A DNA stretch of 59,252 nucleotides, counting the filler, from Actinomycetota bacterium (lineage in GTDB: Bacteria > Actinomycetota > Actinomycetes > JAKEEW01), in assembly GCA_046725875.1 (NCBI GenBank). It is 5 parts of 5 records of this genome, joined end to end, with 100 filler letters (N's around TTAATTAATTAA, not from the genome) between each part and the next. Parts side by side here need not be neighbours in the genome. Positions count along the whole stretch, not along the records: positions 29,060 to 44,023 come from JBKOZJ010000112.1; 4 more parts are not named here. One strand, given 5' to 3'. A program made the translations under genes and the position numbers. Shown here one piece after another: positions 34,293 through 44,023 of the stretch. Positions within the stretch are counted from its first letter, which is position 1. Each line of letters opens with the position of its first letter. The notes beneath the pieces were generated by a model, which was given only the letters and a program-made list of their open reading frames with translations, did no database searches and was not told the DNA's origin.

Positions 34293-35225
34293 TCAGTCCG
34301 CCAGGGTTAGCAGCAGGCCGAACGCGGGGAAGAGTGCCGGGCCGAAGGTCGTGATCTCGGCGATAGCTCCGTCTTCGACCCGCAGCACGTCGAACTTGAA
34401 CGCGCGGAACTCCGAGTCGCCCGGCCGCCGCAGATAACTCGCCGCCGTTGGCATGCGGTTGGCGACGGTTGGGAGCAGCCGCCAGTCGCCCAGACTCGCG
34501 GCCTCGGCCACCATGGGCGCTACCGCGTCGACACCCTCGTAGACATAGGGGTACGGCGGCATGGTGACCCGGATGTCCTTCGCCGCGGCCGCGACGGCGG
34601 CCTCGGCGTCGCACCGCTCGTGCGCGTCGATGAAACGCTCGAGCAGCTCGCGTTCCTCGGGACTCGGTTCGGTCGTCGACCACTCGTGCCGCTGCGCGGG
34701 CAAATGCCGCTGCATGGTGCCACGCGCACGCTGCAGCGCGCTGTTCGCGGCGGCGACGCTGGTCTCGAGCAGCGCCGCGGTCTCGCTGGCCGTCCATCCC
34801 ATGACGTCCCGCAGGACCAGGGCAGCACGCTGCCGCGGCGGCAGCACCTGCAGCGCCGCGAGGAAAGCGAGCTCGATCGTCTCGCGGGATACCACGACCG
34901 CATCCGGCTGCTCGTCCGCGGCCGCAACCTCGTCGAGCAGCCGGTCCGGATAGGGTTGCAACCAAGACACCTCGGCGAACGACTTAAGCTCCGTCACCCG
35001 CCTGGATTTGCTGCGCAGCATGTCGAGGCACACGTTAGTTGCAATGCGGTAGAGCCATGCCCGGAAGAGCGTGCCCTCGAAGTTCTCCCGGCTCCGCCAT
35101 GCGCGCAGGAGCGTCTCCTGAACCGCATCCTCGGCCTCGTCGTACGAAGCGAGCATCCGGTAACAGTGGACGTGCAGCTCCCGACGGTGGTGCTCAGCAC
35201 GAGTGGCGAAGTCGTTCTCGGTCAT
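34293..35225 (-). CDS. ECF sigma factor with C-terminal SnoaL-like extension (SigG/ECF56-like)
   Basis: HRRELHVHCYRML..AEDAVQET..RAWLYRIATN, WLQPYPD, LPPRQRA, MPP, AN..P..A.Y. Confidence 0.92.
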   Translation of the reverse strand: MTENDFATRAEHHRRELHVHCYRMLASYDEAEDAVQETLLRAWRSRENFEGTLFRAWLYRIATNVCLDMLRSKSRRVTELKSFAEVSWLQPYPDRLLDEVAAADEQPDAVVVSRETIELAFLAALQVLPPRQRAALVLRDVMGWTASETAALLETSVAAANSALQRARGTMQRHLPAQRHEWSTTEPSPEERELLERFIDAHERCDAEAAVAAAAKDIRVTMPPYPYVYEGVDAVAPMVAEAASLGDWRLLPTVANRMPTAASYLRRPGDSEFRAFKFDVLRVEDGAIAEITTFGPALFPAFGLLLTLAD

Positions 35226-35698: not shown

Positions 35699-35900
35699 GA
35701 TCTCTCCTCTGTTTCTGATCGATTCTCGCCCGTTCCGCGAGTTCCGGACATGAAACGCCGGCCGGTGAGAAGACTCATCGGTCCATCGATGATCCGATCT
35801 TCGGGGCCCTGCAGCTCCCGGTGAAAGATCTCCCTGATCCGCCATGGTTGGTCGAGCGACACACACGCGTAAATCGCCCGGCACGGGCGGTGCTCTCGCC

Positions 35901-35930
35901 CGTTGGGTCCGATGCAAGTGCCGTTCATGC
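35901..35930. repeat. REP-like element, degenerate copy
   Basis: CGTTGGGTCCGATGCAAGTGCCGTTCATGC shares GTGCCGTTCAT with the other copies. Confidence 0.45.
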
Positions 35931-35942
35931 GGATCGGTGCGA

Positions 35943-36767
35943 TCAGAGGGTGAGCAGGACGATCCCGGCCGCGACAAAGATCGACGCGATCACGCGCTGG
36001 CGTCCGAACCGCTCGTGGAAGACGAGCGTGCCGATTAGGGCACCGAGAATAATGCTGGTCTCCCGCAGCGCGGAGATCGGAGCCAGCGCGCCGCGGGTTT
36101 GCGCCCACAACACAAGCCCGTAGGCGAGCAGGCTGATCGCTCCGCCGCCCAGACACGGCAGCCAGATCGAGCGGATCGACCGAAGCAGCCCCTCTCGCCG
36201 TACAAGCATCGCCGCGACCCCTACCAGCCCGCCCTCCAGCAGGATCAGCCAGCCCGCATAGCCAACCGCGCTCCCCGAGCGCCGTACGCCGACTCCGTCG
36301 ATCACGGTGTACGTGGCAATCGTCAGCCCGGTGGCGATCGCGGCCAGCACGGCCCGCCGATCGGCGAGGGCAGCGGTCGCGCGGCCGGTCAGGGCCAGGC
36401 TCGACAGCGCACAGAACACCGTGGCGACGCCGAGTGCCTGCGTCACGGTAGGGATCTCACCGACGAACGCCGCGGCGAGGATCGTCACCACCAGCGGTGC
36501 CGTGCCTCTGGCGAGCGGATAGGTCTGGCTAAAGTCGCCGAGCGCGTACGACAACATGAGGCCGATGTTGTACGCCATGTGGACGGCGACAGACGCCGCG
36601 AGAAAGGGCCAAGCGGCAGCGGTCGGCATCGGCGTGAGGGCGGCCAGCGGCGTCGCACAGATGGCGCCGCCGACGCTGATCAGGCCCACCGCGAGGATCT
36701 TGTCCTTGACGGAGTGGGCGATCGCGTTCCAGGTGGCGTGGGCGACGGCCGCGCCGAGCACCGCCAC
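35943..36767 (-). CDS. EamA/DMT transporter (same subfamily as 18110-18946)
   Basis: HATWNAIA, SQTYPLARG, YTVIDGVGVR, SALRETS. Confidence 0.9.
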   Translation of the reverse strand: MAVLGAAVAHATWNAIAHSVKDKILAVGLISVGGAICATPLAALTPMPTAAAWPFLAASVAVHMAYNIGLMLSYALGDFSQTYPLARGTAPLVVTILAAAFVGEIPTVTQALGVATVFCALSSLALTGRATAALADRRAVLAAIATGLTIATYTVIDGVGVRRSGSAVGYAGWLILLEGGLVGVAAMLVRREGLLRSIRSIWLPCLGGGAISLLAYGLVLWAQTRGALAPISALRETSIILGALIGTLVFHERFGRQRVIASIFVAAGIVLLTL

Positions 36768-36990
36768 GGTGACCGCCGCACCCAGCCCGGACCCTGCGAT
36801 GCCAACCTCCTGCCACCGTCATCCCCGCGCCCGCACCATAACCGAGCGGTCCGACTCGCCGTACGCCCGCGCTTCACCTGTTCGCACGGTCCGTGGCCGA
36901 AAATGTCGGCGGGCGATCACGCTCGGCAGGCATTCGACGGCGTCAGTGGCCGTATCGGGATGTGAAGAGGTGCGAGCATTGGATGGCGGG

Positions 36991-38265
36991 CTAGGGGAGG
37001 AGGAGGTTGGAGTCGCCGAACTCGTGCCAGAGGTACCGGCGGTCCACCGCCTCGCGGTAGCAGCGCTCCAGCAGCATCCGGCCGGCGACCGCCTCGAGCA
37101 TAGCGAGATGCGACGCGTGCGGTTCGTGGAATCCAGTCAGCAGACCGTCGACCGCCCGCAACCCGCGCTCGGGCGTGACGACGAGATCGGTCCAACCGGT
37201 TGCGGGGTGTACGACACCGGAGGGGTCGGCCGCGCTTTCTAGCGCTCGTACCGCGGTCGTCCCAACCGCGACCACCCGGGCGCCGGCGCGGCGCGCAGCA
37301 TTGACCAGGCGGGCGGTCGCGGCGGGCACCTCAAAGCGCTCCGGGTAGGGCTTCTCGTGCGCCTCCGGTGACGCCACCCCGGTGTGGAGGGTCAACGGAG
37401 CGAACACGACCCCGGCCGCGACGAGCCGCGTCGCCAACGCCTCGGTGAAGGGACGGGCTGCGCTTGGCATCTCCGCACTGCCCGCTCGCGCTCGCTCCAC
37501 TGGCGGGGCGAAGACGGTCTGGTACGCAGAGAGCGGCCAGTCCCGTTCTACATAGCCGTAGCGGATCGGACGCCCGAAGTGCAGCAGGTACCGCACCAAG
37601 CCCGACGGCTCTGCATGCGCTCCGCGACGTCGTGCGGTCAACCTTGATAGATCGCGCGGTCCAAATGCTCCGCTGGCCGCGTCCGCACGGTTGGAGGCTT
37701 CGGAGGCCGGTGCGCCTGCGCCGCTGAGATCGAAGCGAGCCGTCCAGAGGCGGCCCTTTGTGTACGGAGCCACAAGGCGCATCCGGCCGCCACCGGGCAG
37801 TCCGTAGACCTGCCGAGCGAACCCCGAACGGTACGGCTCGTTCCCCCGATCCACCACCCGCCGCCGCAGCTCCACCACCCAGGTCCCATCGGGCAGTTCG
37901 GTCGACACGTGCACGACGATCCCGCCAAGAGCCGGCTGTTCGGCCTCCGCAACCCGGCGGTCCACGACGGCCGCCGGCGCCCGTTTGGTGTCGGCCTCGG
38001 TATGCCGATCATGGAGCATGGCCGGCGGTCCAGAGGTTGTGTCGATCGCCGCCGGCAGCGTCGCCGACGTATTGACGACGAGGACATCGCCCGGCGCGAG
38101 CAACGACGGCAGGTCGCGGAACCGGCGGTGGCTGAGCTCGCCGGGTGATCGGTGCGCGACGAGCATCCGGACGCCGTCACGAGCGAGCCCCCGCGCCTCG
38201 GGCGGTTCGTGGGCCTCCAGGGACCGCGGAAGGGTGAAGTCGAGAACCGCCGTGTCGGCGCTCAC
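36991..38265 (-). CDS. QueA-like protein (non-canonical paralog of SAM:tRNA ribosyltransferase-isomerase)
   Basis: LAPGDVLVVNTS, YQTVFA, GSAEMPSAARPF, LHTGV, AVGTTAVRALES, LLTGFHEP, YLWHEFGD. Confidence 0.85.
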   Translation of the reverse strand: MSADTAVLDFTLPRSLEAHEPPEARGLARDGVRMLVAHRSPGELSHRRFRDLPSLLAPGDVLVVNTSATLPAAIDTTSGPPAMLHDRHTEADTKRAPAAVVDRRVAEAEQPALGGIVVHVSTELPDGTWVVELRRRVVDRGNEPYRSGFARQVYGLPGGGRMRLVAPYTKGRLWTARFDLSGAGAPASEASNRADAASGAFGPRDLSRLTARRRGAHAEPSGLVRYLLHFGRPIRYGYVERDWPLSAYQTVFAPPVERARAGSAEMPSAARPFTEALATRLVAAGVVFAPLTLHTGVASPEAHEKPYPERFEVPAATARLVNAARRAGARVVAVGTTAVRALESAADPSGVVHPATGWTDLVVTPERGLRAVDGLLTGFHEPHASHLAMLEAVAGRMLLERCYREAVDRRYLWHEFGDSNLLLP

Positions 38266-38705
38266 CGGACGCTCCCGTCCGCCGACGTCGCAGTGGCACT
38301 GTTCGGCTCGCGCGCTGGCGGCGCCTCACTCCAAATCAACACCTCGACATCGTTCGGATCACGCAATCTGAAGGCGTAATAACCGCGATCGTAAATGGTA
38401 GGCGGTCCGGCGAGGGCCGGGGGACCCGCCCGGGCGGCAGCGAGAAGTCGCTGATACTCGGCGTCGACTGCCGACCAGGACGGCAGCTCGAGGGCGACGG
38501 TCAGGACCGACGGAACGCCCGTCCGCCTATCCGCATATGAGACAAATTCGAGATGCCCATCAGGCGCCGCCTCGAGGACGACCGCGTGTTCGTTGTCATT
38601 ACTCCACTCGTCGACGCGGCGCAGCCCGAGCCCGCGCTCCCAGAAGTCGACGGCGGCCTCCAGATCAGGCACCTCGAAGGGCAGCCATATGGAGAGGGGT
38701 GTCAT
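38262..38705 (-). CDS. VOC-family protein
   Basis: EVPDLEAAVDFWERGLGL, RGYYAFRLRDPNDVEV; 4-nt overlaps at both ends. Confidence 0.8.
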   Translation of the reverse strand: MTPLSIWLPFEVPDLEAAVDFWERGLGLRRVDEWSNDNEHAVVLEAAPDGHLEFVSYADRRTGVPSVLTVALELPSWSAVDAEYQRLLAAARAGPPALAGPPTIYDRGYYAFRLRDPNDVEVLIWSEAPPAREPNSATATSADGSVR

Positions 38706-39493
38706 TGGGCCGCCTCCACCCGGGCGGCATCGGCTTGTGCGCCGTTCCCGGCCGCCCCGGGCGTCGCGCCGACCGGGAAGTCGGCTGCCCGGTAGCGCCC
38801 ACTCGGCGGTTGCTTCCAGATCAGCCGCAGCAGCGAAGGGACCACTGTGGTTGGCTCGGGCCGGTCGGAGATGTCCTCGCCGGGAAAGGCGTCCTGGTGC
38901 ATCTGTGTACGCATGTCGCCCGGGTCAACCCACCACACGCGTAGGTCCGGCTCCTCGGCCGCGAGAACCCGGCTGAGCTGCTCGAACGCGGCTTTCGCCG
39001 CGCCATAGCCGCCCCACCCTTCATACGCCTCGACGGCGGCGTCCGATGTCATGTTGAGCACGGACCCCCGACCGGCCCGCAGCAGCGGCAGCGCCTCTTG
39101 TACGAGCCCGAGCTGCGCGATCACGTTCACCTCGAAAATGTCGCGCAGCGCATCGAGTGGGACGTCCGTCAGCCGCGGGAGCGGGCTGGGCCCGAGCGTT
39201 CCAGCGTTGTTGACGAGCAGGCCAAGTCCGGGACCAGGATGGGGGGCGAACCGTGACAGCTCACGCGCGGCGACCTGGCGGGCAGCATCCACAAGGTCCC
39301 TGCGATGCGCTTGGTCGGTGATGTCCCCCGGGATCGCGACCACATCAGTAAGCCTGGCGAGCGATACAGCGGACCGCTCGAGGTCGCCCGCACCGCGGGC
39401 GTCGATCACCAGCCGCCATCCGGCCTCGGCCAAACCCCGCGCCAGCGCCGCGCCGAGCCCTCGAGATGCCCCGGTGACTATCGCAACGGACAT
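38702..39493 (-). CDS. SDR oxidoreductase
   Basis: TGASRGLG, LVNNAG, SDAA..YEGWGGYGAAK, VDPGDMRTQMHQDAFPGEDI; GGAGG RBS. Confidence 0.92.
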   Translation of the reverse strand: MSVAIVTGASRGLGAALARGLAEAGWRLVIDARGAGDLERSAVSLARLTDVVAIPGDITDQAHRRDLVDAARQVAARELSRFAPHPGPGLGLLVNNAGTLGPSPLPRLTDVPLDALRDIFEVNVIAQLGLVQEALPLLRAGRGSVLNMTSDAAVEAYEGWGGYGAAKAAFEQLSRVLAAEEPDLRVWWVDPGDMRTQMHQDAFPGEDISDRPEPTTVVPSLLRLIWKQPPSGRYRAADFPVGATPGAAGNGAQADAARVEAAQ

Positions 39494-39675
39494 TAGGAAC
39501 GCCTCCATCATTCTCGAACCAGATCAGGCCGCCCGGAACCGACGGTCCGCGACGTCCTTGCTCGCGCCGCCGCGCCGCCGGGTCCCGGTGAACTGGACGG
39601 TGACGGGCTCGGCGGATGCCGGTCATGGCGCGGCGGCGAAAGCACCCTGCCGACGCTAGAAACGGCCGATCTCGG

Positions 39676-39808
39676 ATGACCTCGGCCGCCGGTCGCGACT
39701 TCACCACACCGAACGACCTACGACCTCGGTTCGACAACCCACGCTGCTAAGGCCGGTCCAGACGCTGACGGCCGCGTTCTCCGTCACCGGTCCTAGGACC
39801 GCGGCCGG
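39676..39808. promoter_or_regulatory. Candidate response-regulator boxes in the divergent promoter
   Basis: GACCTCGG at 39678 and 39722, GACCGCGG at 39797; perfect palindrome CGGTCCTAGGACCG at 39788-39801. Confidence 0.45.
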
Positions 39809-39826
39809 ACGCGGCGGACTCGTACC

Positions 39827-41077
39827 GTGGGTACCGTCGATCTCGTGGGCAACCGCACCCCTGCTTCGCGCTGTACGCCCAAGCCGGCGACGGAAGAACG
39901 CGCGCCGAGCGCCGCGGCAAGCGCCGGTGCCGATCTCGATGCGCTATGCGGCGGACAGACCCGGGCGGAGCTTGAAGCGGTCTCCGCGGCGGTCCTCGCC
40001 GTAACCAAGCACCTCGACGTCCGGGAAGTGCTGCAGACGATCGTGACCGCAGCACGGTCGCTGCTCCAGGCGCAGTATGCGGCCCTCGGCGTGCCGGACG
40101 ACAACGGCCGGTTCCGCGAGTTCGTCGTCGACGGGGTGAGCGAGGAGCAGTGGGCCGCAATCGGTCCGGTGCCGCGCCAGCACGGGATGCTGGGCGTGAT
40201 GCTGCGCGAGGCGCGGCCGCAGCGGCTGCCGGACATCACGAAGGATCCACGGTTCGTCGGAGACTGGCCGGCCGCCCACCCGAAGATCAAGGACTTCCTC
40301 GGCATGCCGATCGTGGACGGCGACGAGATTCTCGGCGCGATCTACTTGGCGAACAAGCGTGACACGGCCGGCTTCACCGAGGCCGACGAGCGGATGCTTT
40401 CGGTGCTTGCCGCGCACGCCGCGATCGCGCTAGCGAACGCGCGTTTGTACGAGCGAAGCCGGGAGCTGACGATCGTCCGGGAGCGCCAACGTATCGCCCG
40501 CGAGCTACACGATGCCGTCGCGCAAAAGCTGTTCAGCCTGCGGCTGACTGCCGAGGCCGCGGCTTCGGTTGCCGACCGCGATCCCTGGCGGGCGGCGGCC
40601 GAGCTCGCGACGGTGAGACGACTCGCGGCCGAGGCGCTGGACGAGCTCCGGCAGGTCGTGGTCGAGCTGCGCCCGGCCGACTTGGCCGGCGACGGGCTTC
40701 CGACGGTGTTGCGAAGGCAAATCGATGTGCTCGACCGAGCAGGCGGAGCGTCGGTAAGGCTGGTCGTCGATGGGTGGCGGCGGCTGCCGCTGGACCGTGA
40801 AGAGGCCGTGTTGCGGGTGGCACAGGAGGCGCTGCACAACGCGCTGCGGCACGCCGAGGCATCCGCCATCACGGTGCGGCTGGAACGGTCGCGCTCGCGG
40901 GCGACTCTCACCGTTGAGGACGACGGGGTCGGTTTCGACGTTTCGGACGCCACACGCGGCGCGCACCGGCTCGGGCTTGCGTCGATGCGGGAGCGGGCGA
41001 GGGCGGCCGGTGGCCGGTTGTCCGTACAGTCGGACGCCGGCCGCGGCACCACCGTGAGGCTCGAGGTGCCGGTCTGA
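39827..41077 (+). CDS. GAF-domain histidine kinase (HisKA_3)
   Basis: YAALGV..FLGMPI GAF domain; ERQRIARELHD; QEALHNALRHA; DDGVGF; GLASMRERA; start uncertain. Confidence 0.92.
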   Translation: MGTVDLVGNRTPASRCTPKPATEERAPSAAASAGADLDALCGGQTRAELEAVSAAVLAVTKHLDVREVLQTIVTAARSLLQAQYAALGVPDDNGRFREFVVDGVSEEQWAAIGPVPRQHGMLGVMLREARPQRLPDITKDPRFVGDWPAAHPKIKDFLGMPIVDGDEILGAIYLANKRDTAGFTEADERMLSVLAAHAAIALANARLYERSRELTIVRERQRIARELHDAVAQKLFSLRLTAEAAASVADRDPWRAAAELATVRRLAAEALDELRQVVVELRPADLAGDGLPTVLRRQIDVLDRAGGASVRLVVDGWRRLPLDREEAVLRVAQEALHNALRHAEASAITVRLERSRSRATLTVEDDGVGFDVSDATRGAHRLGLASMRERARAAGGRLSVQSDAGRGTTVRLEVPV

Positions 41078-41718
41078 TGGGCGAGCGGATCAGGGTGTTG
41101 ATTGCCGACGACCATCAGATCGTGCGGCAAGGGTTGCGCACCTTCCTTGATGTACAGGACGACATCGAGGTCGTCGGCGAAGCCAGCGACGGCGCCGAGT
41201 GCGTCGCTCTGGCCGAGTCGCTGGCGCCGGACCTGATACTGCTCGATCTGAAGATGCCAGGCACAGACGGCGTCGAGGCGCTACGCATGCTGCGGGAACG
41301 AAAGCTGGCGGCCCGGGTACTTGTCGTGACATCGTTCACCGAGCTCGACGCCGTAGTTCCGGCGGTCCGGGCCGGCGCGGCCGGCTATGTTTACAAGGAC
41401 ATCGATCCGGCTGCGCTCGCCTCTGCAATCCGATCGGTGCATTCCGGACATGTGCTGCTCACTCCGGACATCGCGGCCGCGTTGGTCGCCGGCAGCGTGT
41501 CCGACCGGGATGCGGGGCTGGAACGGCTGACCGACCGAGAGCGTGAGGTGCTCGCCGAGATCGCCCGCGGCAGGTCGAATCGAGAGATCGCACGCGCTCT
41601 GGTTCTCTCAGAGAAGACCGTCAAGACGCATGTCAGCTCGATTTTGCTCAAGCTGGACCTGCAGGACCGCACCCAGGCCGCCCTCTATGCGGTCCGGCAC
41701 GGCCTCGCCAACGGGTGA
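41077..41718 (+). CDS. NarL/LuxR response regulator
   Basis: IADDH, LLDLKMP, LTDREREVL..GRSNREIA..KTVKTH. Confidence 0.95.
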   Translation: MGERIRVLIADDHQIVRQGLRTFLDVQDDIEVVGEASDGAECVALAESLAPDLILLDLKMPGTDGVEALRMLRERKLAARVLVVTSFTELDAVVPAVRAGAAGYVYKDIDPAALASAIRSVHSGHVLLTPDIAAALVAGSVSDRDAGLERLTDREREVLAEIARGRSNREIARALVLSEKTVKTHVSSILLKLDLQDRTQAALYAVRHGLANG

Positions 41719-41758
41719 CATCTGGCGCCGCCCTGCCCGCCGCCGCCAGGCGCTGCCG

Positions 41759-42241
41759 CTACTCGGCGGCGTACTGGTCGTGCTTGGCTAGGAACTCCGT
41801 CCACTCGTCGCCGGTCATCGTCCGGCCGGTGTCGCGGATCTCGGCCAGCTCGCGGAAGTAGTTCTCGCGCGGCGCGCCGGGTGCGAACAGGATCAGCATG
41901 GACGAAGGCTCGTCGCTGGGTGCGCGGAAGCCGTGAATACCACCCATCGGGACGTAGAGGAAGTCGCCGGACCGTGCCGAGATCCACTGCTGCCCGTCGT
42001 AGAGCTCGACGAGCCCGGATACGACGAAGAACGCCTCGGAGAACGTCCGGTGGAAATGGGCGTCCGCGCCTGGGGTGTGCGGCCGCATATTCCACTCGAA
42101 CAGCCCATACTGACCGTTGGTCGCCGGACCCGGAGCCACGAACCGGACATGGGTGCCGCTGGTGCCGAAGGTGAGGCTGTCGACGGCGTCCCGGCCATGG
42201 AACGCGGCGCTTATCTCTCCCGTTTCCCGCAAATAGGTCAT
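41759..42241 (-). CDS. Cupin-domain protein
   Basis: HFHRTFSEAF, VP.GGIHGF, LFAPGAPRE.YF; TAGATT 6 nt before ATG. Confidence 0.88.
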   Translation of the reverse strand: MTYLRETGEISAAFHGRDAVDSLTFGTSGTHVRFVAPGPATNGQYGLFEWNMRPHTPGADAHFHRTFSEAFFVVSGLVELYDGQQWISARSGDFLYVPMGGIHGFRAPSDEPSSMLILFAPGAPRENYFRELAEIRDTGRTMTGDEWTEFLAKHDQYAAE

Positions 42242-42820: not shown

Positions 42821-43792
42821 CTAGCGTTGCCGGCCGCGGGGCTTGAGCCGGGTCGTGGGCATGGGCGGTGCCGGCAACGGATCGCCTCGATATCCGCGAA
42901 CCGTTCCGAACCGGCGGCCGTTCATCCATTCGTCCCGGGCCTCGACGATCTCGTCGTGATCCCGCGCGACGAAGTTCCACCACATGACGATCTGCTCGTC
43001 GAACGGCTCGCCACCGATGAGCAGGACGCGGCCCGGCTGGTCAGCGGCGAGCGACAGGTCCGAGCGCCCGGAGCCGAGGTAGAGCAGCGGTCCTGGCGAC
43101 AGCGCGAGACCATCCACGGAGACCACGCCGGACAGCGCCAGCGCCGCATACTCCCAGTCCGGCTCCAGCGGCAGGCGGCTGTCGGCGTCGGCCCGAAGGT
43201 CGACCTCCGCGCCGACGAGTGCGCTGTGGACCACAGCCGGAGACTCGACACCGCCCAGCTCGCCCATGATCACGGTTGCCTCGACACCCGTGTCGGCGAG
43301 GACCGGCAGGTCGGGGTGGTGCTCGAAGTGGGGGTCAACATGACGATCGCGATCAGGGAGGGCCACCCACAACTGCACCCCGTGCAGCATCGGGGAGTGC
43401 TCGGGTGGCGTCTCCTCGGAGTGCGAGATGGCCCGGCCCGCCGTCATCAGGTTGAGCTGACCGGGCTCGATTAGCTGGAGGCTGCCGAGGCTGTCGCGGT
43501 GCAACACCTCACCTGCGACCAGCCAGCTGACCGTCTGCAGCCCGGTGTGTGGATGGGGCGGCACGCGCATGCCTGCCCCGTTGGTCAGGTCCTCGGGACC
43601 ATAGTGATCGAGAAAGCCCCATGCTCCGACCATCCGCCGCTGGCGGTTGGGCAGGGTGCGGCTCACCGTCATTCCGCGTGGACCGCCCAGGGGGACCTGG
43701 GCGCTGGCCTGGAGTTCGCGTACCGGCTCGGCGGCCACGGCAGCCAACCCGCCACTCTGGGTTTCCTCCGGTCGCGGCTCGAGGTTGCTCAC
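42821..43792 (-). CDS. Pirin-family protein
   Basis: FLDHYG, PHPHTGLQT, HRDSLG, MTAGRAISHSE, QLWVALP, MWWNFV. Confidence 0.93.
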   Translation of the reverse strand: MSNLEPRPEETQSGGLAAVAAEPVRELQASAQVPLGGPRGMTVSRTLPNRQRRMVGAWGFLDHYGPEDLTNGAGMRVPPHPHTGLQTVSWLVAGEVLHRDSLGSLQLIEPGQLNLMTAGRAISHSEETPPEHSPMLHGVQLWVALPDRDRHVDPHFEHHPDLPVLADTGVEATVIMGELGGVESPAVVHSALVGAEVDLRADADSRLPLEPDWEYAALALSGVVSVDGLALSPGPLLYLGSGRSDLSLAADQPGRVLLIGGEPFDEQIVMWWNFVARDHDEIVEARDEWMNGRRFGTVRGYRGDPLPAPPMPTTRLKPRGRQR

Positions 43793-43973
43793 ACCCGCCA
43801 CGCTACGGCCTGGATGAACAAGACCTGCCGCTCCCGGCTGGCGCCGCGATGTGGCGGACGCCTCCGCGGCCAGCGCCGCAGAAGGGCGTGCGTCCTGAAA
43901 GGTTGCTAAGAGTAGGGTCCGCCCGACCGCGAGCGGGGAAGTTCGGGTGCGAGCTGCGGTTATCTTTGAGGCG

Positions 43974-44023
43974 ATGGACGAGAACAAGGCGCGGCGGGTC
44001 GTCGATGCGCTGCGGGAACGCGG
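43974..44023 (+). CDS. Hypothetical protein, N-terminus only
   Basis: TATCTT 7 nt before ATG; MDENKARRVVDALRE runs into the linker. Confidence 0.45.

Follow-up and report, generated by a model that had tools for sequence, protein, structure and literature searches.

A QueA-like protein coupled to a short-chain dehydrogenase/reductase and linked to candidate redox regulators in actinobacteria

QueA (the tRNA preQ1(34) S-adenosylmethionine ribosyltransferase-isomerase; PF02547; equivalogs NF001140 and TIGR00113) carries out a reaction that is among the most unusual of those that use S-adenosylmethionine (SAM), and in the literature that we found, the name always stands for queuosine synthesis in tRNA. 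Surveys of queuosine genes report many Actinobacteria without tgt, and the parts of these surveys available to us do not discuss a QueA paralog (PMC10570037, PMC6063277). The described regulatory systems closest to the one reported here are DevS (DosS)/DosT-DevR of Mycobacterium tuberculosis and OsdK/OsdR of Streptomyces coelicolor, together with the SoxR regulons of S. coelicolor and Pseudomonas aeruginosa, which in the accessible descriptions are small target sets of reductases and transporters (PMC4146615, PMC3534580) and are connected with how redox-active compounds are processed and exported (PMC3534580). Here we describe a locus within a 59,252-nucleotide stretch of DNA (the window) from an Actinomycetota bacterium (GCA_046725875.1), where the gene for a QueA-like protein is joined to genes for a short-chain dehydrogenase/reductase (SDR) and a vicinal oxygen chelate (VOC) protein and faces a sensor kinase and its response regulator. 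We propose, at a probability of roughly 55%, that the SDR and a neofunctionalized QueA-superfamily enzyme form a redox- or gas-stress effector that acts on a small molecule, outside tRNA queuosine synthesis. Gene families were assigned by Pfam and NCBIfam profile scans of the open reading frames (ORFs) in the window. Places 1-20980 belong to contig C110, the locus belongs to contig C112, and there is a run of N's near 44.05 kb, and linkage statements are valid within about 21 to 44 kb.

The QueA-like protein reached about half of the equivalog cutoffs for QueA, with 164 bits against NF001140 (cutoff 324) and 128.7 bits against TIGR00113 (cutoff 267.45). Thirteen of 13 further clade members from distant genomes scored 145 to 206 bits against NF001140, versus 403 to 489 bits for nine of nine canonical actinobacterial QueA proteins. 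A phmmer search with the window protein likewise gave 275 to 565 bits inside the clade versus 93 to 144 bits against canonical QueA. A maximum-likelihood tree was built from 86 members of the clade and 20 canonical QueA proteins, 106 rows in all, with 32 near-redundant Streptomyces rows dropped; the canonical sample was actinobacterial only. The split between the two groups had a Shimodaira-Hasegawa-like approximate likelihood ratio test (SH-aLRT) value of 100. Judged by its sequence, the protein is a QueA paralog and not QueA. The initial annotation had called it such a paralog and had set clustering with canonical QueA beforehand as refuting that claim; the cutoffs and the tree bore the claim out, and no such clustering was seen. 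Public annotation names the whole clade S-adenosylmethionine:tRNA ribosyltransferase-isomerase, and a search of the ESM Atlas brought up nothing beyond this clade, again labeled QueA.

HMMER alignments to the QueA structures 1vky, 1wdi, and 1yy3 made visible the motif differences that the initial annotation had quoted. The canonical motifs PLPPYI, GSVAAPTAGLHFT, TNFHLP, and YRFFSFGD align with PIRYGYV, GSAEMPSAARPFT, TGFHEP, and YLWHEFGD in the window protein, which retains AVGTT.VR.LES. Across the clade, PLPPYI, GS.AAPTAGLHFT, TNFHLP, and YRF.SFGD are replaced by PIRY.Y, GSAEMPSAaRPFT, TG.HEP, and YLWHEFGD, and each replacement is conserved within the clade. When we aligned the 86 clade members with the 20 canonical proteins, 59 columns were conserved in both groups and 25 were fixed differently, the clade having IRY for PLP, EM for AA, RP for LH, G378 for N, and LW.E for RF.S; 65 columns were invariant inside the clade. 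The columns common to both groups include GDxLVxN, YQT, AVGTT..R..E, D...T..H.P, and FGD, and the polar ones among them are R29, R33, H46, D60, N65, YQT, S263, T274, E309, TT336-337, R340, E343, D373, T377, H380, and D418. Because 59 columns are shared and the changed positions are themselves invariant, the pattern is that of a predicted active enzyme with altered specificity and not one of decay, and the conserved core residues are compatible with SAM-ribosyl chemistry, which may be retained. The same alignment bears on whether the protein has lost SAM chemistry, so that the QueA scaffold would now serve a different reaction or bind the SDR without catalysis. Such a loss would suit the changes in several canonical motifs that are otherwise among the most conserved, but the many polar residues among the shared columns and the invariance of the changed positions argue against it, and we consider it unlikely.

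An AlphaFold2 model of the window protein (mean predicted local distance difference test score, 85.2; predicted template modeling score, 0.85) kept the QueA two-domain fold whole, including the small beta-barrel domain. Foldseek searches with this model matched only the QueA structures 1vky, 1yy3, and 1wdi, with E values of about 1e-21. Two low-confidence insertions, at about residues 77 to 112 and 186 to 222, are absent from most relatives. A search for longer proteins, as a source of fusions that might hint at function, gave six singletons, several with truncated domains; these may be assembly or gene-calling artifacts, and we gave them no weight. The median isoelectric point is 6.7 in the clade versus 8.8 in canonical QueA, a drop that fits weakly with loss of RNA binding. 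These properties also bear on a Tgt-independent, stress-induced hypermodification of another amine-bearing base in tRNA, rRNA, or DNA. The intact fold with its beta-barrel domain favors such a target, as does the fact that every characterized QueA activity is on tRNA. The lower isoelectric point speaks against it, as do the partner proteins described below (SDR, transporters, VOC, and SnoaL-like), which are small-molecule proteins, and the window genome has no Tgt or DpdA-type PF01702 match and no genes for preQ0/preQ1 synthesis. We regard a nucleic acid substrate as quite unlikely.

The absence of tgt and other que genes, first noted for the contig, extends to the whole assembly of the window genome (3.76 Mb, 197 contigs, 89% complete), with one family-level match as the exception. 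There was no match for TGT (PF01702), QueC (PF06508), QueF (PF14489), QueG (TIGR00276), or QueH (PF02677) in this 89%-complete assembly, and its single PF02547 locus is the QueA-like gene of the window. The sole match to a queuosine-related family outside the locus was a PTPS/QueD-type protein on another contig (C170:2719-3042; 64 bits). QueC, QueE, and QueF partners for this protein were not found in the window genome, and it may be a folate or pterin enzyme.

We looked at the link with TGT in 401 genomes sampled evenly from the phylum, in which PF02547 scores were bimodal. The best PF02547 match was of the weak type in 76 genomes, 7 of which had TGT, versus all of the first 40 strong-type genomes. 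Five of the 76 (G018, G120, G174, G239, and G268) are unpublished and all lack TGT; when they are excluded, 7 of 71 have it. Clade membership was confirmed by a protein search in 39 of 40 of a weak-type subset. In strong-type genomes tgt often adjoins queA, and the QueA-like gene was never beside tgt in the loci examined. The independence from tgt that the initial annotation had proposed to check is supported by these counts. A divergent but genuine QueA that finishes queuosine from salvaged precursors would agree with the public annotation and with the TGT found in 7 of the 76 genomes (e.g., four of four in family f37). We consider it highly improbable: TGT is missing from 69 of 76 weak-type genomes versus 0 of 40 with canonical QueA, both equivalog cutoffs are missed, QueG and QueH were not found in the window genome, and the gene does not adjoin tgt in any locus examined. 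Because the carriers cannot make queuosine, genes of this clade are probably misannotated as QueA in Streptomyces and in many further actinobacteria. Five genomes of families f37 and f26 (L103-L107, L117, L118, and L126) have TGT and the QueA-like paralog alone, without canonical QueA, and may salvage queuine. Corynebacterium glutamicum, included as a named control, has TGT and no PF02547 match.

A scan of species-representative genomes returned 589 relatives of the QueA-like protein, and we examined the loci of the best 80 of these 589. A second sample of 33 loci comprised 31 from the phylum sample (39 matched genomes, minus 4 unpublished and 4 with matches at short contig edges) and 2 from a Mycobacterium-like genus. 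The gene immediately upstream, on the same strand, is an SDR ortholog in 76 of the 80 and in all 33 loci, which upholds the proposed link with a reductase. Of the four exceptions, three are cut contigs and the fourth is L023. Four-base overlaps between the SDR and QueA-like genes are present in distant genomes too. The constant core is a two-gene, translationally coupled pair of SDR and QueA-like genes, and the arrangement is far beyond chance, since it recurs in hundreds of genomes.

The SDR motifs TGASRGLG, NNAG, and S...YGAAK are readable in the translation. Among 44 orthologs T13, G14, G18, G20, S156, Y169, and K173 are invariant and N101 and N102 nearly so, as in classical SDRs. The nearest solved relatives are a ketoreductase (6yc8, 84 bits), YciK (3iah, 74 bits), and sepiapterin reductase (1sep, 66 bits), and no NCBIfam equivalog cutoff was reached. 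The window SDR thus shares TGxxRGxG, NNAG, and YxxxK with SDRs of the sepiapterin reductase and YciK types, but its likeness to sepiapterin reductase is modest, and it is closer to the unrelated ketoreductase.

The remaining genes of the operon are less constant. The initial annotation had counted the VOC enzyme as part of the unit, but a VOC gene lies between the SDR and QueA-like genes in only 3 of the 80 loci (L003, L004, and L007), and it is a lineage-specific addition outside the conserved unit. The VOC protein matched no NCBIfam family and had a weak Protein Data Bank (PDB) match to YycE (E = 0.007). FosA and FosX are VOC enzymes, but a Fos-type epoxide opener was set aside as speculation, since neither an NCBIfam family nor a PDB relative other than YycE supports it. 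The EamA protein scored 130 bits against TIGR03340, below the cutoff of 288, and its type was found in none of the 80 related loci. Other EamA genes are divergent from the SDR-QueA-like pair in three loci of another family (L141-L143), a major facilitator superfamily (MFS) gene lies downstream in L140, another MFS gene lies between the SDR and QueA-like genes in Actinomadura (L015), and a SnoaL-like gene is present in L124. Transporter genes were added to the pair on several independent occasions, and the transporters, VOC, and SnoaL-like protein are hints of a small-molecule substrate. Clustering of neighbors across the 80 loci, as a source of further pathway genes, gave only the synteny of Streptomyces and Streptosporangiales (ABC ATPase, chaplin, SerB-like, SLT, FHA-ABC, and H+-PPase genes). 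In two loci from the Mycobacterium-like genus g4 (L112 and L113), a soxR-SDR-QueA-like block is inserted between the genes for phosphoenolpyruvate carboxykinase and a FadD4-type acyl coenzyme A (acyl-CoA) ligase (NF038341, 1,024 bits), and a gene for an enoyl-CoA hydratase with an N-terminal extension also adjoins; these neighbors are probably synteny too.

Orthologs of the kinase and regulator are also linked to the pair, as had been asked of the related loci: the kinase lies within 5 kb in 68 of the 80 (62 divergent and 6 codirectional) and the regulator, at about 70% identity, in 69. The kinase GAF domain (about residues 64 to 212) matched the GAF-A domain of DosT (2vzw) end to end, over residues 68 to 212, with 108 bits (E = 4.5e-30), and it also matched DevS (2w3d), with 103 to 107 bits for four distinct DevS GAF-A chain sequences. 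His151 of the kinase aligns with the His of the DevS motif YHPPMR and is invariant in 78 of 78 orthologs. We take this position to be that of the proximal heme ligand of DevS and the position of Tyr173 to be that of its distal tyrosine. Residue 173 is Tyr in the window kinase and is Tyr in 14 and Phe in 64 of the 78 orthologs. The GAF-A likeness, the ligand His, and the pairing of a HisKA_3 kinase with a NarL-family regulator are shared with DevS/DosT-DevR and OsdK/OsdR, as is a palindromic GC-rich operator candidate. The window kinase differs from DevS and DosT in that it carries a single GAF domain (Pfam, residues 64 to 202) before HisKA_3, not the tandem GAF-A/GAF-B architecture, and in the mostly Phe residue at the distal position among its orthologs. 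The regulator scored 196 bits against the NarL equivalog, below the cutoff of 250; its best PDB matches were VraR, NarL, and DevR, and it is no closer to DevR than to the other two.

The divergent promoter region holds a conserved operator-like palindrome, which strengthens the case for the signal control initially suggested for this locus. Of 59 divergent loci, 49 have CCTAGG between the kinase and SDR genes, where its density is 5.43 per kb versus 0.049 per kb in the rest of the same loci, an enrichment of about 100-fold, and the consensus of the operator candidate is GGnCCTAGGnC. The window copy, GGTCCTAGGACC, is probably the binding site of the NarL-type regulator. The 12-mer pattern GGNCCTAGGNCC has 2 sites in the whole window genome versus 21 for the reversed pattern; we set aside a wider regulon, as the second site lies inside a 731-residue ORF and was taken as chance. 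The system's apparent regulon is thus a single divergent locus, which sets it apart from the OsdR and DevR regulons. The OsdR/DevR box AGGGCCGATCGGCCCT, as given in the accessible part of its description, differs from GGnCCTAGGnC (PMC5069765); the spacing of the half-sites is not the same, and the window operator candidate was not placed in the DevR regulon. Close to the SDR start, the motif TTCCTAGCGTCG / GTTCCTAGGTTGAGG recurs in related loci. The -10 consensus of actinobacteria is TANNNT, by which the CTAGCGT motif of the window is a candidate promoter of the SDR operon.

The regulators varied in the sample of 33 loci, with the kinase and regulator codirectional upstream in 7, a divergent SoxR in 14, and neither within 4.5 kb in 12. 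The divergent protein is a true SoxR (TIGR01950, 196 bits against a cutoff of 117) with the CIGCGCLSLKRC cluster motif. A SoxR-box promoter, TTGACTTGAAGTTnACTTCAAC...TAGTCT, precedes the SDR gene in 13 of 13 readable spacers (that of the fourteenth locus, L145, is unreadable), with the SoxR palindrome bordered by a -35 element, TTGACT, on one side and by a -10-like element on the other. On the tree the type of regulator changed several times. Since the SDR gene is present in 33 of 33 loci but the regulators vary, the SDR and QueA-like genes are the constant part and the regulator is exchangeable. DevS-like sensors and SoxR respond to redox-active compounds, NO, or oxygen. The signal is probably a redox or gas stress, because the GAF domain resembles those of DevS and DosT and SoxR substitutes for the kinase system in many lineages. 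The SoxR-type loci resemble known SoxR regulons in their reductases and transporters; the window genome, in which no SoxR scored above the cutoff, instead uses the kinase system with its heme-GAF-like domain. No QueA-family gene is named among the S. coelicolor SoxR targets in the portions of the regulon descriptions available to us, and our literature searches linking SoxR with QueA found nothing relevant.

Taken together, we suggest the following mechanism for a stress effector built on the SDR and QueA-like pair. The heme-GAF kinase would sense a redox or gas signal and phosphorylate the NarL-type regulator, which would then act at the GGnCCTAGGnC palindrome on both divergent promoters; in other lineages SoxR and its classic SoxR-box promoter would take the same role. 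The QueA-like enzyme would cleave SAM and carry out a ring opening and transfer of the QueA type onto a small-molecule acceptor in place of preQ1-tRNA, and the SDR would reduce or oxidize a carbonyl or hydroxyl group on either the substrate or the product. Some lineages would use a transporter (EamA in the window, MFS elsewhere) to move the compound across the membrane, and the VOC protein of the window and the SnoaL-like protein elsewhere could be optional trimming enzymes.

Several points weigh against this proposal. Heme binding by the kinase GAF domain is a prediction from the DevS/DosT likeness, and the change from Tyr to Phe at the distal position in 64 of 78 kinases may mean that ligand specificity differs. 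The operator role of the palindrome is suggested by its enrichment, and SAM use by the QueA-like enzyme is suggested by residue conservation; the PDB titles of 1vky, 1wdi, and 1yy3 do not mention SAM. The SDR looks like a generic classical SDR whose relatives do not indicate a substrate class, and the transporters and VOC protein, being lineage specific, are weak guides to the substrate. A nucleic acid target retains the small probability given above. The 12 of 33 loci with neither regulator within 4.5 kb, some of them on cut contigs, mean that linkage to a regulator is not obligatory, and the type of regulator has been exchanged several times. Two of 10 Streptomyces-like genomes (L114 in G039 and L115 in G282) keep the kinase-regulator pair (>430 bits) and have no QueA-like gene anywhere; the SDR-QueA-like pair is lost or was never gained in these genomes. 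The kinase-regulator pair adjoins FHA-ABC transporter genes in both, with an SLT gene nearby in L114.

The pair could also be biosynthetic, turning SAM into a carbocyclic, ribose-derived protectant or signal that is exported by EamA or MFS proteins and maybe feeds back on the GAF sensor. QueA builds an epoxy-cyclopentanediol from the ribose of SAM, as stated in the accessible parts of two reports (PMC9092360, PMC5699537). Genes of exporter families recur beside the pair, and the system is self-contained, with an operator candidate almost unique in the genome. Against this, no other biosynthetic genes are conserved nearby and the neighbors past the four genes are plain synteny, nothing points to a GAF ligand other than heme, and SoxR regulons are tied, in the portions of the literature available, to the processing and export of redox-active compounds (PMC3534580), so we think a biosynthetic pair rather unlikely. 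A more speculative reading, which we consider less likely than not, is QueA-type chemistry outside tRNA. On redox stress, NO, or hypoxia, the ribose of SAM would be turned into a carbocyclic unit (epoxy- or hydroxy-cyclopentyl), either built as such or put on a redox-active compound; the SDR would process the product and a transporter would export it. The carriers of the pair include Streptomyces-type and Mycobacterium-like genomes.

A fixed reductase partner and two unrelated redox sensors provide a concrete condition under which to seek the reaction. The pair is a first candidate output for a conserved, unnamed two-component system of Streptomyces (probably SCO1801/SCO1802), and it is a new candidate for membership in SoxR regulons of actinobacteria. 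If the proposed chemistry is correct, the reach of SAM as a ribosyl donor would be wider, with a possible new class of stress metabolites. If the carbocyclic reading is correct, it would be the first QueA-type chemistry outside tRNA; the metabolites derived from SAM would form an undescribed family, and DevS-like sensors and SoxR would have a new output.

The S. coelicolor counterpart is probably SCO1801-SCO1804, which we matched by annotation order (NarL regulator, kinase, SDR-type oxidoreductase, and QueA) and not by sequence. In the tables that we could consult in part, SCO1804 is listed as QueA (PMC4932002), SCO1803 as a dehydrogenase homolog (PMC11272600), and SCO1802/SCO1801 as an unnamed histidine kinase-response regulator pair (PMC9739842), and SCO1801 appears in a transcriptome table (PMC3897704). 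These partly seen tables report no function for SCO1801-SCO1804. Our literature search, which did not extend to supplementary tables, found no description of the function of the clade or of a link to SoxR. The module is real and widespread and, as far as this literature goes, uncharacterized; within the QueA superfamily it is a new variant in function. In Streptomyces loci, the genes that flank the regulator are a chaplin (ChpA-C) gene and an ABC ATPase/permease pair, and we take chpE to be SCO1800. In many Streptomyces assemblies (L036-L081), about 10 kb separates the module from the end of its contig, a position that hints at a repeat close by, for example an rRNA operon.

The layout of the window locus (Table 1) agrees with the initial annotation. 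The four-base overlaps that were said to join the SDR, VOC, and QueA-like genes were read in the sequence (AATGACA at the SDR stop and VOC start, GGTGAGC at the VOC stop and QueA-like start), and Pfam confirmed all three families. The coordinates and Pfam domains likewise agree with a kinase/NarL pair divergent from the operon, in which the regulator start overlaps the kinase stop. The EamA gene does follow the QueA-like gene as described, but a gap of 223 bases separates them, so that it is not coupled like the upstream trio.

Table 1. Features of the QueA-like locus (positions in the window)
Feature	Position	Strand	Basis or remark
EamA-family (drug/metabolite transporter) membrane protein, 274 aa	36767..35943	-	PF00892
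QueA-like protein, 424 aa	38265..36991	-	PF02547, 238 bits
VOC protein (glyoxalase/bleomycin-resistance/dioxygenase superfamily), 147 aa	38705..38262	-	PF00903, 39 bits
SDR, 269 aa, first operon gene	39511..38702	-	PF00106, 115 bits
CTAGCGT motif (-10-like TAGCGT), candidate operon promoter	39653..39659	-	~140 bases upstream of SDR ATG
Perfect 12-bp palindrome GGTCCTAGGACC, candidate operator	39789..39800		26 bases upstream of kinase start
Cytoplasmic GAF-HisKA_3-HATPase sensor histidine kinase	39827..41077	+	Pfam domains
NarL/LuxR-family response regulator, 213 aa	41077..41718	+	PF00072 + PF00196

An Rfam scan of 35800-41800 for a riboswitch in the long SDR leader, with E values up to 1, gave only a meaningless subthreshold microRNA match. 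Beyond the regulator, genes for a cupin (41759..42241) and a pirin (42821..43987, probably with a later start than the listed TTG) lie on the minus strand; neither was among the conserved neighbors of the related loci. Pirins are often tied to redox stress. Downstream of the EamA gene on the minus strand is a second VOC gene (likely start MDMKLEV at ~35695, stop at 35222). Its stop has a 4-base overlap with the start (35225) of the next gene (34293..35225, minus strand), which encodes an extracytoplasmic function (ECF) sigma factor that carries a SnoaL_2 domain at its C terminus. In the closest relative, L003, the second VOC gene comes directly after the QueA-like gene, with no EamA gene. Because of this gene order and the overlap between the VOC and sigma factor genes, the operon may extend as far as the ECF sigma factor.

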